64,000 bases of DNA from a virus, in IMG/VR virus record IMGVR_UViG_3300020442_002635, positions 24,417 to 88,416 of that record. The stretch is one strand, 5' to 3'. The position numbers and the translations under genes are program-made. The first letter of the stretch is position 1. Each line of letters starts with the position of its first letter. Of the stretch, positions 541 to 29,535 are shown one piece after another. The notes below the pieces were generated by a model. That model did not search any database. It was not told the origin of the DNA and saw only the letters and a list, made by a program, of their open reading frames with translations.

Positions 541-554
541 TTTTAGTTATTTAT
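541..554 (-). promoter_or_regulatory. Late promoter-like ATAAATAACTAAAA
   Basis: Same 14-mer occurs before six consecutive genes; resembles T4 TATAAATA. Confidence 0.7.
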
Positions 555-3013
555 CACTCATCTTTAAGGTAAGCATTAAACTGCATATTACTATTTTGAT
601 ATGTACTTATACCAACACTTCCAAGTTTCCATTGTGTTCCTGGAATTTGGATTGGTGATGAATATGCAATCTCACTAGTATTATTACCAACTTCTCCACC
701 ATAAGCACCAAGACCCCACGCCCACAATGTTCCATCAGTCTTCTTAGCACGACTTCCATATCTAGTACATCTAAATTCATTAGTCCACTGAGTTCCTGAA
801 ATTTGAATTGGTGATGAATAATATGCATCATTATTAAGACCCAAAGAACCGTTGGAGTTTATTCCCCATGTCCATAGGTATCCATCTCCCTTACTAGCAA
901 GACAATGGTAATTACCTGATGACACATCAGTCCATGTTCCTGGAACTTGTGTTGGTGATGAACGATTTACTACATCATTGAGACCCAAACCACCATAAGT
1001 TTGATTAATTCCCCATCCCCAAAGAGTTCCATCAGTTTTAAGTGCCATAGCTCTAGAATACCCACCTACTGCATATTTCCATTCTGTTCCTGAAATTTGA
1101 TTTGGTGATGACCTAGGAACGCTGGCGCTGCTGTTGGTCCAACCCAGGGCTCCCATGTAATCATATCCCCATGACCACAATGTTCCATCAGTTTTTGTGC
1201 AATACATTGAATCTCTTCCAACAGCCGGTACACCCCATTCTGTTCCTGGAACTTGAGTTGGTGATGAACGACTTATACCTTGATCATTAACACCATGTTT
1301 ACCATTATTATCATTTCCCCATGTCCATAATGTTCCATCAGTCTTTTTGGCTATAGTAGTTCCGTATGTTTTTAATCCACCTTCCCATTGTGTCCCTGGA
1401 ACTTGAACTGGTGATGAACGATCTACTCTATCATTTGCACCATATTCTCCATTCTGATTAAGTCCCCATGCCCAAAGAGTTCCATCTGTTTTAACTGCTG
1501 TTATACATTCCTGCATTATATCAGTATGAATATTTTTCCATTGTGTCCCTGGAACTTGAACTGGTGATGAACGTTTTATTATATCACCTTGTCCCAGTTG
1601 TCCATATAGATTATCACCCGTCATATACAAACTATATGCTGGACTAGTTAAAGCAACAGTTCCAAAATAATAACTTGAAATACCAACACTATCGCTGGTT
1701 CTCATTGTATCTTGGAATGCATTTGCAGGGAACAGTACATAATAGTTTGTACCACCAATACCAAGATCGGTTGCAGGATTAATTGTTAAAGTTGCATTGT
1801 CAATAGAGATTGTTGAACTAGATCCAACAGTAGCAACATCAAATCTTTCTGATACATTATCTTGAACAACAATTTCCCCAATCATTGCAGGGTGAATACT
1901 GCACTGATAATAATATGTTCCTGGTGTAACTCCAAAAGTATCCCAGGTTGTGGTTGCTGTTCCTTCTCCTGTTAGTGTGCCTTCACTTACACTTGCACCA
2001 CCATCACTGACCCTAATATACAGTGGGTGATCTCCGTACACACTATTGCTGAATATGAGTGTATCACCAACATTTACTGTAATAGTTACATTATTTCCAC
2101 TTACAGCACCACTTCTATCATTTCCTGCTACACCATAGAGACCAGCTCCTGGAGATGTAATTGCCTGGGTGTATGATAATTCTTCTGTTTGAATCGTAAC
2201 AATACCAACATTTGCTGAGATTGGTTTTTGAAACGTTAAAACAATATTTGTATCTGCTGCAATTCCAGTTGCACCAATACCAGGACTATAGACAAGAGGT
2301 TCTAATGCACCACCAATGTTCGTCAGTCCTGATCCATCACCACTAAATGATGTAGCTGTAATGATTCCTGTTGTATTGATACTACCTGTGGTTCCAATAC
2401 CAGCAACGACACCTTCTAAACCCGATCCATCACCATAGAATACTGATGCTGTAACAATACCAGCAGTAATACCATCAGAACTTACTGTTGCACCTGATCC
2501 AATAGTGACTCTATTTGTAGATCCATTTACTACGATACTACTAGTTCCAATGGTTGCAATACCAGTGATAGTAATGTTACCTGCAGTATCCCAATTTGGG
2601 CCTCCAGATGTTAAGTTGTAACCATATATAGATCCATCATCTACAGATGACATCTGAACTTTACCACCAAATACAAGACCATAGAAGGTCAATGCTGCAT
2701 CAGGTGCTGTTGTAAATGTAATATTACTTCCTGATGTTGTATAATCTGTTCCTGCTTCTTGTACAACACCACCAAGACTGATAATGACTTGAGCATCACT
2801 TACTGGAGTAATAGGATAACTTCCAGAAGTTAATGCAAAGGTTGTATCAGATCCATTAAAGGACCCTGATATATTATCAAGTTCCTTTATATTTTTTGGA
2901 TTTTGAGTATTGAAGTTAATCCAAACGGTACCATTCCATTGATACACATTCCCTGATGCAGTATCAACATGAATTTGGTTTACACTTGGACTTCCAGGAA
3001 ATGATAGTGCCAT
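554..3013 (-). CDS. RCC1-like 7-blade propeller fibre protein, class A, with Ig-like (Big_5-like) domain and inserted cupredoxin domain
   Basis: N-terminal MALSFP..YQWNGTVW; GIITATSFSGDGS fibre motifs; 7 repeats of KTDGTLWxWG...SSPxQxPG; H...CSIHPAM copper motif. Confidence 0.8.
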   Translation of the reverse strand: MALSFPGSPSVNQIHVDTASGNVYQWNGTVWINFNTQNPKNIKELDNISGSFNGSDTTFALTSGSYPITPVSDAQVIISLGGVVQEAGTDYTTSGSNITFTTAPDAALTFYGLVFGGKVQMSSVDDGSIYGYNLTSGGPNWDTAGNITITGIATIGTSSIVVNGSTNRVTIGSGATVSSDGITAGIVTASVFYGDGSGLEGVVAGIGTTGSINTTGIITATSFSGDGSGLTNIGGALEPLVYSPGIGATGIAADTNIVLTFQKPISANVGIVTIQTEELSYTQAITSPGAGLYGVAGNDRSGAVSGNNVTITVNVGDTLIFSNSVYGDHPLYIRVSDGGASVSEGTLTGEGTATTTWDTFGVTPGTYYYQCSIHPAMIGEIVVQDNVSERFDVATVGSSSTISIDNATLTINPATDLGIGGTNYYVLFPANAFQDTMRTSDSVGISSYYFGTVALTSPAYSLYMTGDNLYGQLGQGDIIKRSSPVQVPGTQWKNIHTDIMQECITAVKTDGTLWAWGLNQNGEYGANDRVDRSSPVQVPGTQWEGGLKTYGTTIAKKTDGTLWTWGNDNNGKHGVNDQGISRSSPTQVPGTEWGVPAVGRDSMYCTKTDGTLWSWGYDYMGALGWTNSSASVPRSSPNQISGTEWKYAVGGYSRAMALKTDGTLWGWGINQTYGGLGLNDVVNRSSPTQVPGTWTDVSSGNYHCLASKGDGYLWTWGINSNGSLGLNNDAYYSSPIQISGTQWTNEFRCTRYGSRAKKTDGTLWAWGLGAYGGEVGNNTSEIAYSSPIQIPGTQWKLGSVGISTYQNSNMQFNAYLKDE

Positions 3014-3027
3014 TATTGTCTACACTT

Positions 3028-3041
3028 TTTTAGTTATTTAT
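3028..3041 (-). promoter_or_regulatory. Late promoter-like ATAAATAACTAAAA
   Basis: Overlaps the upstream gene's stop; precedes 554..3013. Confidence 0.7.
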
Positions 3042-28354: not shown

Positions 28355-28375
28355 TGTTATTCCCGTGTTTATGAG

Positions 28376-28383
28376 TATTTATA
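28376..28383 (-). promoter_or_regulatory. T4-type late promoter TATAAATA
   Basis: Perfect consensus upstream of 27653..28354. Confidence 0.75.
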
Positions 28384-28395
28384 AGTTATTAGTAT

Positions 28396-29535
28396 TTATG
28401 AAGATTTTAAATAAATGTAATTACTTTGTCTTCCCATAGGTTTCGCGACCCATCCTGCTCCCGTAACTTGAATTGGTGCAGAACGTTGCACTTCATCACC
28501 ATTAAGCAGCTGCCCATCAGAATTAGCACCCCACGCCCACAGTGTTCCATCAGTTTTTGTACAAAAACTGCTATATATACTCATTTCTACATCAGAACTC
28601 CATTGTGTTCCTGGAAGTTGAGTTGGTGATGACCTGTTTTGATTATGACCAAGACCCAATTGACCTTGACCACCCTCTCCCCATGCATAAAGGGTTCCAT
28701 CAGTTTTGGTTGCCAAGAGTCCAGAGTAACTTCCACTAGAAACATGACTCCATTGTGTTCCTGGAAGTTGTGTTGGTGATGAACGAGCAGTATTTATAAT
28801 ATTGTGACCTAAGCCTCCATCTCTATCAAATCCCCATGTCCATAATGTTCCATCAGTTTTTATACCTGCTCTATGCCAATAACTTGATGAAATCAAACTC
28901 CATGTTCCTGGAATTTGAACTGGTGATGAACGATTTACTCTATCATTTTGACCCAAATATCCATCAGTATTTTTGCCCCATGCCCATGCTGTTCCGTCAG
29001 TTTTTATTGCCATTACAGTATTAGCACCACCTGCTACACCATAAGACCACTGTGTTCCTGGAATTTGAGTTGGTGATGAACGATCTACTTTATCATTTTG
29101 ACCTAATGCACCTTGACTATTACCTCCCCACATCCATAATGTTCCATCACTTTTGACTGCACCATTTGTTGAATAACCAGCATGAATAAAATTACTCCAC
29201 TGAGTTCCTGGAACTTGTTTTGGTGATGAATAAGGCACTGTATCATTATGACCAAGGTAAGTTGGTTCAGTATTAAAACCCCATGTCCACAAGGTTCCAT
29301 CAGTCTTTATACCTTTATTTGCCGTCGAACCCCCAGCAGCATTTAACCACTGTGTTCCTGGAACTTGAATTGGTGATGAACGATCTACTTTATCATTTTG
29401 ACCTAATTGGCCATTAGTATTTGCTCCAAGGAGATATAATTGAAAAGGACCTCCAGCCCCTCCACTATATGACCAATTACCTGCTAGATATTCGTCCCTT
29501 ACGTCTTGTAAGTCCCATACACCTTTTTGTGTCAT
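28396..29535 (-). CDS. RCC1-like 7-blade propeller protein, class C
   Basis: KGVWDL...AGNW leader; 7 repeats. Confidence 0.8.
   Translation of the reverse strand: MTQKGVWDLQDVRDEYLAGNWSYSGGAGGPFQLYLLGANTNGQLGQNDKVDRSSPIQVPGTQWLNAAGGSTANKGIKTDGTLWTWGFNTEPTYLGHNDTVPYSSPKQVPGTQWSNFIHAGYSTNGAVKSDGTLWMWGGNSQGALGQNDKVDRSSPTQIPGTQWSYGVAGGANTVMAIKTDGTAWAWGKNTDGYLGQNDRVNRSSPVQIPGTWSLISSSYWHRAGIKTDGTLWTWGFDRDGGLGHNIINTARSSPTQLPGTQWSHVSSGSYSGLLATKTDGTLYAWGEGGQGQLGLGHNQNRSSPTQLPGTQWSSDVEMSIYSSFCTKTDGTLWAWGANSDGQLLNGDEVQRSAPIQVTGAGWVAKPMGRQSNYIYLKSS

Follow-up and report, generated by a model that had tools for sequence, protein, structure and literature searches.

Putative host-adhesion proteins with RCC1-type propellers and class-specific N-terminal anchors, encoded in conserved gene triplets of a cyanomyovirus tail region

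Phages such as CBA120 (TSP1-4), G7C and phi92 carry several receptor-binding proteins on one baseplate, in which conserved N-terminal adaptors are combined with exchangeable distal domains, and their tailspikes are homotrimers with β-helical, enzymatic heads that are encoded by one gene per type. Here we describe nine genes for proteins with RCC1-type β-propellers in the window, a stretch of 64,000 nucleotides that comprises bases 24417-88416 of an 88.4-kb virus record of IMG/VR (IMGVR_UViG_3300020442_002635; 41% complete by CheckV). Their products differ from the CBA120/G7C/phi92 type in having propeller heads and in being encoded by conserved gene triplets, and adaptor domains of that type were not detected by Pfam in the nine proteins. 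In phiKZ, gp131 carries a C-terminal seven-blade propeller that is placed at the tip of a baseplate fibre and is proposed to bind the host, and the fibre base has been modelled as a trimer of gp131 joined by one copy each of gp133, gp134 and gp135, paralogues with similar N-termini that a helix bundle holds together (PMC13250141). The likeness to gp131-gp135 lies in a row of paralogous genes with similar N-termini and in the seven-blade propeller, but the present proteins have RCC1-type propellers and three classes of anchor, one of them a leader of about 27 residues, and belong to a T4-like cyanomyovirus. Furthermore, a tblastn search with one of them, C3, against 50,697 phage records matched 13 records, none of which is phiKZ-like, and revealed no homology to gp131, and we regard the resemblance to the gp131 system as an analogy. 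The neighbouring proteins W70_237, W70_238 and W70_239 of Escherichia coli phage W70 (Vequintavirinae) are RCC1 proteins of about 40 kDa that were found in virions by mass spectrometry; the relative A7-1 is without the third RCC1 gene, and a role in DNA condensation was suggested for these proteins (PMC11370258). They are reminiscent of our class C in being small, three in number and probably structural, and PHROG 4219 is matched by the W70 proteins and by proteins of the window alike, whereas the phage family is unrelated to the cyanomyoviruses. The same propeller fold is also found in BFVD models of proteins of the Pseudomonas phages Littlefix and PollyC, which are annotated as tail fibre or with the T7-tail-fibre N-terminal domain, an adaptor to which class A likewise gives a weak lead (ESM Atlas), but these are single long fibre proteins that form no triplets and are about 20% identical.

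The nine genes all lie on the minus strand, as do almost all genes of the window, and by their N-termini they fall into three classes of three, as had been claimed in an earlier reading of this DNA (the original prediction). Class A consists of A1 (554-3013, 819 residues), A2 (3038-5197, 719 residues) and A3 (5221-7374, 717 residues), which start MAL[SN]FP...WNGTVW (MALSFP...WNGTVW in A1), are 48-53% identical in their N-terminal regions and end in a seven-blade propeller. The immunoglobulin (Ig) domain predicted for the whole class is recognized by Pfam as Big_5 in A2 (residues 244-349) and A3, whereas that of A1, which follows fibre motifs, is split by an insert of about 93 residues. Class B consists of B1 (7407-9017, 536 residues), B2 (9034-10659, 541 residues) and B3 (10676-13384, 902 residues), which start MSQxKxQLI (MSQQKAQLI in B1) and share a knob made up by the TTIDLS...WYGYE module (residues 76-179 in B1); their N-terminal regions are 61-67% identical, and at the level of DNA the identity of the knob is 79-81%. 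There is a single seven-blade propeller in B1 and in B2, whereas B3 has two, the halves being 47% identical to each other. Finally, class C consists of C1 (20318-21457, 379 residues), C2 (26479-27642, 387 residues) and C3 (28396-29535, 379 residues), in which, just as predicted, the propeller is preceded by nothing but a short W-x-L leader. This leader is about 27 residues long and 30-38% identical between the three proteins, and we distinguish a position-1 type in C3 (KGVWDLQDVRDEYLAG), a position-2 type in C2 (TSGVWLLNDAYHK) and a position-3 type in C1 (IRKNTWDLDGLYDLT).

All nine proteins match PF00415 (RCC1) above the Pfam cut-off (E 2e-65 to 5e-27), and six of them also exceed the cut-off of PF25390 (RCC1-like domain). 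Counting the SSPxQ anchor of the repeats bears out seven repeats per gene and 14 in B3, and thereby 70 blades or ten propellers, with one of the seven anchors of A2 being degenerate (YQSPVQ). Except for A2 and A3, which are 63% identical, the propellers of the window are pairwise 41-51% identical, and of the 49 blade positions 19 are conserved at 80% or more (consensus SSPxQIPGTQW...AxKTDGTLWxWGxNxxGxLGxND) while 17 are hypervariable, the latter mostly in the stretch after the tryptophan. A structure model of C3 (AlphaFold 2, built on 30 relatives; mean predicted local distance difference test (pLDDT) 85.6) is a seven-blade propeller with template modelling (TM) scores of about 0.8 to UVR8, HERC2 and RCC1. 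The propellers match PHROGs 4219, 7220 and 16766, which are filed under 'DNA, RNA and nucleotide metabolism: regulator of chromosome condensation', but genes of a tail module have very probably been mislabelled in this way after the name of the fold, and the guanine-nucleotide-exchange or chromatin function of eukaryotic RCC1 is not expected of these proteins. Such database labels would misdescribe the propeller genes, the label standing for a fold and not for a function.

The location of the genes is that of a tail module. Between about 29.5 and 57 kb the genes of the window match PHROGs for baseplate hub/tail lysozyme, baseplate wedge, tail protein and a tail fibre of 1948 residues, and a tail protein of 451 residues is 53-60% identical to those of the Synechococcus myoviruses SynMITS9220M01, S-SM2 and Bellamy, the nearest isolates by this protein; a search of isolated phages for near-identical DNA found none. 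Judged by these matches, the window is the tail/baseplate region of a T4-like cyanomyovirus. The nine propeller genes lie downstream of the baseplate-hub, wedge and 1948-residue tail-fibre genes and on the same strand, and Synechococcus phage S-SRM01 is arranged alike; indeed C3 directly follows fibre genes, and gp335 of S-SRM01 overlaps the end of the gene annotated as 'long tail fiber distal subunit'. The propeller genes of relatives are without exception confined to one corresponding region. No RCC1 repeats were found beyond the nine genes in the whole 88.4-kb record, the incompleteness of which leaves room for further paralogues outside it.

The N-termini provide a second link to tail fibres. 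Those of class A match PHROGs of tail-fibre and virion proteins (E about 1e-10), and their residues 26-119 match residues 80-177 of the phage capsule depolymerase in PDB entry 9k4a (E 4e-5), which we take to be the anchor domain of that enzyme. The N-termini of class B match tail-fibre PHROG families (about 6e-9) and resemble small phage fibre proteins, some of them with a collagen stalk (a lead from the ESM Atlas only), and in other phages the knob of class B occurs by itself as the last part of proteins of 150-190 residues. In a model of B1 residues 1-73 are disordered and contain repeated GxxTATxFxGDGSxL fibre motifs, and residues 76-179 form an all-β module, the TTIDLS...WYG β-sandwich knob. 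The leader in the model of C3 is a helix (residues 9-17) on a floppy linker of low confidence (residues 19-28) and lies outside the propeller fold. Furthermore, the modules appear to be exchangeable, since class A anchors are joined to C-termini other than propellers in L013-L030 (G and L numbers are our handles), and a hybrid of 753 residues in G001 (L159, 58848-61109 in record coordinates), in which a class A N-terminus is followed by a class B knob and a propeller, indicates that anchor modules recombine. There is in addition a split form in G013 (L172, 4720-7762) and L133 (17652-18941), where a class A anchor protein of 587 residues without propeller is followed, after a gap of 13 nucleotides, by a separate leader-only propeller gene of 421 or 429 residues, suggesting that short leaders can stand in for the covalent link to the fibre. 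The view that these are modular proteins of the tail-fibre type with class-specific N-terminal anchors, which formed part of the original prediction, is accordingly backed at the level of sequence by the PHROG matches, the match to 9k4a and the exchange of modules.

A separate observation concerns the insert in the Ig domain of A1 (1898-2179, minus strand; residues about 279-372), which has a cupredoxin-like signature, GDHPLY ... YYYQCSIHPAMIG, that is His ... Cys-x2-His-x2-Met, and matches Pfam Copper-bind below threshold (E 0.0032). The fibre protein may thus carry a domain that binds copper or has the cupredoxin fold. G004 and G005 have A1-type proteins of comparable length (822 and 832 residues), in which the propeller starts at about residue 465.

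Relatives were taken from scans of IMG/VR, where at least 598 stretches matched, and their propeller arrays were fetched or the whole records searched. Class C is found as three leader-only genes in a shared order in at least 20 related records; there are exactly three in G000, G001, G003, G006, G008, G009 (99% complete), G011, G013, G014 and G015, in S-SRM01, the complete genome of an isolate where they are gp335, gp337 and gp344, in marine virus AG-345-E08 and in about ten further contigs. In this order position 1 follows the fibre gene and is separated from position 2 by a small gene, and between positions 2 and 3 there is a cluster of modification enzymes or a short gap. The leader sets form three lineages (like those of G000, S-SRM01 and G015), each with three distinct leader types that are kept across genomes. 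Each of the three class C genes of G006 (L164, 28013-38989 in record coordinates) encodes two propellers (727-729 residues, 14 blades), a joint change of head architecture, and the six propeller domains are 72-81% identical. Exceptions to the trio are BUCT-ZZ01 with one gene for two propellers, G007 with a mixed set, L138 with two genes and L148 and L151 with one each, and unlike the trios a free expansion is seen in L137 (IMGVR_UViG_3300020527_000396, 3832-13900 of the locus), where eight tandem leader-only propeller genes have another type of leader, MAFTFSG...PPPPP..YLWSWG, with a proline-rich linker. Class B likewise numbers exactly three in seven of seven records (G000, G001, G002, G013, L105, L133 and L135+L095). 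Its three leader subtypes occur in the same order in G000, G013, L105 and L133, with the last two swapped in G001, and the orthology of these subtypes is based on leader signatures and gene order, the tree of the first 75 residues being poorly resolved. The class B N-terminal regions are matched in length in G000 and G001 (182-187 residues) but unequal in G013 (281/491/608 residues) and in L133 and L105 (308/401/536 residues in one and 392/459/466 in the other). Class A, on the other hand, has one to three copies: three in G000 and G003, with orthology partly resolved, at least two in G004 and G005, two in L013, and a single one in G001 (the hybrid) and in G002 and G013 (without propeller). 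Two further types of anchor come in threes, in G001 and G003, but others come in fives (L095 and L099), as four plus one divergent copy (G010) or in pairs (L091).

Free variation of copy number among relatives, by which the original prediction would have been refuted, is hence not seen for classes B and C. Three is not supported as a general rule, seeing that class A has one to three copies, that other classes number two, five or eight, that class B lengths are unequal and that B3 and A1 are asymmetric with respect to their paralogues. The recurrence of the B and C triplets in so many independent relatives nevertheless appears to be beyond chance and would largely reflect descent from ancestral triplets that were kept intact by selection, which in turn implies that the three members are non-redundant.

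The anchors and the heads of these proteins furthermore show very different patterns of conservation. When the class C leaders of G000, G001 and G003 are compared, their identity is 47-78% for the same position and 16-46% for different ones, whereas the propellers are 48-63% identical regardless of position. The class C anchors of different genomes are by these values 1:1:1 orthologues, while the propellers give no orthology signal, their identity within a genome being equal to or higher than that between genomes. In the S-SRM01-like group propellers of the same genome are more alike (77-81% in G008) than orthologous ones across genomes (60-74%) and cluster by genome in a tree, and between G013 and G014 the leaders are 57-81% identical and the propellers 43-50%. 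It is on account of this contrast that we read the anchors as ancient, position-specific and conserved, and the heads as either scrambled as far as the scaffold allows or homogenized among paralogues. With regard to a possible duplication of an A_i-B_i-C_i cassette as a block, the propeller phylogeny is uninformative, with heads that group by genome and with many long branches.

We tentatively favor, with a confidence somewhat short of even, the reading that the nine genes encode virion-borne host-adhesion proteins with position-specific anchors and one site per paralogue. Receptor-binding virion proteins are the best reading because of the gene location, the similarities of the anchors, the modular exchange and the contrast between anchors and heads; presence in the virion is suggested by analogy with the RCC1 proteins of W70, and we infer binding and one site per paralogue. 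The anchor would plug each protein into the baseplate/tail-fibre apparatus and the propeller would bind the host surface. In class A the anchor would be an adaptor similar to those of T7 gp17 and of depolymerases, with fibre motifs and an Ig domain, in class B it would be a small fibre with a β-sandwich knob, and in class C a single short helix on a flexible linker, while the seven-blade RCC1-type head would combine a frozen scaffold with hypervariable loops. The B and C trios would be ancient, non-redundant paralogues, each on its own site, and a particle would display up to ten different heads at once, with heads that diversify fast and are exchanged or homogenized among paralogues and anchors that are held constant. 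The unequal lengths in class B, the one to three copies of class A and the split form in G013 and L133 point to separate sites rather than to a heterotrimer. There are however several points that weigh against the adhesin reading. The anchors resemble solved structures only weakly, a sequence search of the PDB with the class B anchor gave no match, the model of B1 is of low confidence (mean pLDDT 64.6), and the paper on S-SRM01 makes no mention of the propeller genes. One site per paralogue moreover rests on orthology, and a hetero-oligomer would fit the same data; indeed a single shared assembly accounts better than independent sites for the fact that the three class C heads evolve in concert and for their joint doubling in G006.

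In such a shared assembly, which together with distinct docking sites was put forward in the original prediction, the members of a class would come together through their N-terminal anchors to form one pseudo-threefold fibre or tip with three different propellers. We consider this unlikely overall and most plausible for class C, where three short leader helices might form a three-helix bundle or dock together. It is in good agreement with the existence of exactly three members with three distinct, conserved anchor types that were kept over deep divergence, with the matched build of the class C trio, with the high identity of the six domains in the two-propeller trio of G006, with the clustering of same-genome heads, which amounts to concerted evolution, and with the modelled C3 leader as a free helix on a floppy linker. 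The model of the phiKZ fibre base (PMC13250141) provides a precedent for different chains at one base, and the three RCC1 proteins of W70 virions have similar spectral counts (233, 196 and 141; PMC11370258). A heterotrimer as the general arrangement is argued against by class B stalks which differ by hundreds of residues within one genome (G013, L133 and L105), by the two propellers of B3 against one in B1 and B2 and the extra domain of A1, by single-copy class A in G001, G002 and G013, and by anchor classes that number two, five or eight, and a helix of nine residues would also be short for a stable bundle. A narrower version, which we find rather unlikely, is that C1, C2 and C3, like gp335, gp337 and gp344 of S-SRM01, form an obligate 1:1:1 hetero-complex, an asymmetric three-headed tip whose heads co-evolve by gene conversion, and this would account for the retention of exactly three genes throughout a wide cyanomyovirus clade. 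To our knowledge, no tailed-phage receptor-binding tip has been shown to be built from three different chains.

The opposite notion, that the members of a class are interchangeable alternatives which compete for one site and give mixed particles or host ranges (bet-hedging), so that the number three has no structural meaning, would account for anchors that are alike within a class, as exemplified by the class B knobs with their 79-81% identical DNA, for the hypervariable heads and for the varying copy number of class A and of other classes. It is however quite improbable, since free competition predicts loss and gain of copies and homogenized anchors, and what is found is three copies of class B in seven of seven records and of class C in at least 20 with conserved gene order, as well as position-specific differences that are kept between genomes in the anchors and not in the heads. 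Finally, the propellers, or at least those of class C, might be intracellular or secreted proteins, serving as partners or substrates of neighbouring enzymes or in host takeover, given that class C genes are interleaved with genes for modification enzymes and have no recognizable fibre domain, and that PHROGs places the family under DNA metabolism. This we regard as very improbable, as proteins of the same PHROG were detected in W70 virions, the same propeller is joined to N-termini of the fibre type in classes A and B, and C3 directly follows fibre genes as gp335 does in S-SRM01; moreover, a role as enzyme substrate would be compatible with that of a virion adhesin.

It is already known or annotated that phage fibres can carry RCC1 propellers, that adhesins occur as arrays of paralogues and that docking modules are found at their N-termini, and the literature on RCC1 among the fibres or receptor-binding proteins of cyanophages yielded nothing specific. 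As far as the searchable literature goes, what is new is the trio of leader-only propeller genes, conserved and position-specific, in a broad clade of cyanomyoviruses, the extension of the trio rule to the fibre-knob proteins of class B, and the sharp contrast of frozen anchors with heads that evolve in concert. How freshwater and marine cyanomyoviruses recognize their hosts is poorly understood, and if the propeller proteins are adhesins, they would be the most variable and most numerous candidate adhesins of this lineage. The pattern may furthermore serve as a model for how host range could change without rebuilding the tail, by freezing the anchors, scrambling or homogenizing the heads and keeping the trios, and the choice between multi-site display and a heterotrimeric tip can be put to the test, as the cultured S-SRM01 carries the class C trio.

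The six class A and B genes form a tightly packed row, B3-B2-B1-A3-A2-A1, with intergenic gaps of 16-32 nucleotides. At its head, 31 nucleotides upstream of the start of B3, lies a TATAAATA motif (13415-13422, minus strand), which we take to be a match to the T4-type late-promoter consensus. A scan of the window for TATAAATA showed no overall enrichment (6 found against 4.8 expected), and the position ahead of B3 is no more than suggestive of a promoter. Between this row and C1 lies a cluster of genes (13402-20266, minus strand) that Pfam identifies as 2-oxoglutarate (2OG)-Fe(II) oxygenase, glycosyltransferase (GT2 and GT25) and sulfotransferase genes, and between C1 and C2 there is another (21454-26458, minus strand) with oxygenase-like, glycosyltransferase-like and tetratricopeptide repeat (TPR)-like genes, as judged from translations read by eye. 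In S-SRM01 the equivalent places are taken by annotated TPR, 2OG-Fe(II) oxygenase and sulfotransferase genes, and the products of these interleaved clusters may modify the propeller proteins. A gene of 233 residues (27653-28354, minus strand) is located between C3 and C2, and such a gene is found at this place in relatives; gp336 of S-SRM01 is similar to it in size and position, but no sequence similarity was detected between these positional counterparts.

Directly upstream of C3 are two genes for fibre-like proteins of 306 and 452 residues (29552-31854, minus strand), which may be regarded as candidate docking partners for the class C leaders. The protein of 452 residues matches PHROGs of baseplate-wedge and tail-fibre proteins, and its N-terminus resembles that of gp334 of S-SRM01, the 'long tail fiber distal subunit', whereas the upstream gene of 306 residues has no homology to gp334. 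Near its C-terminus the 452-residue protein (30496-31854, minus strand) contains the motif SP..GDLW......RTFIYYDE......W twice, which resembles the N-terminal signature of class A, FPDNP..ND.Y.D..SGF.Y.WNGTVW; this motif on its own opens many unrelated phage proteins (loci L033-L079). A protein of 889 residues encoded between the tail-fibre genes (31894-34563, minus strand) has glycine-rich tracts and a SPRY-like domain just below the Pfam cut-off (E 9.5e-6), and belongs to PHROG 24848.

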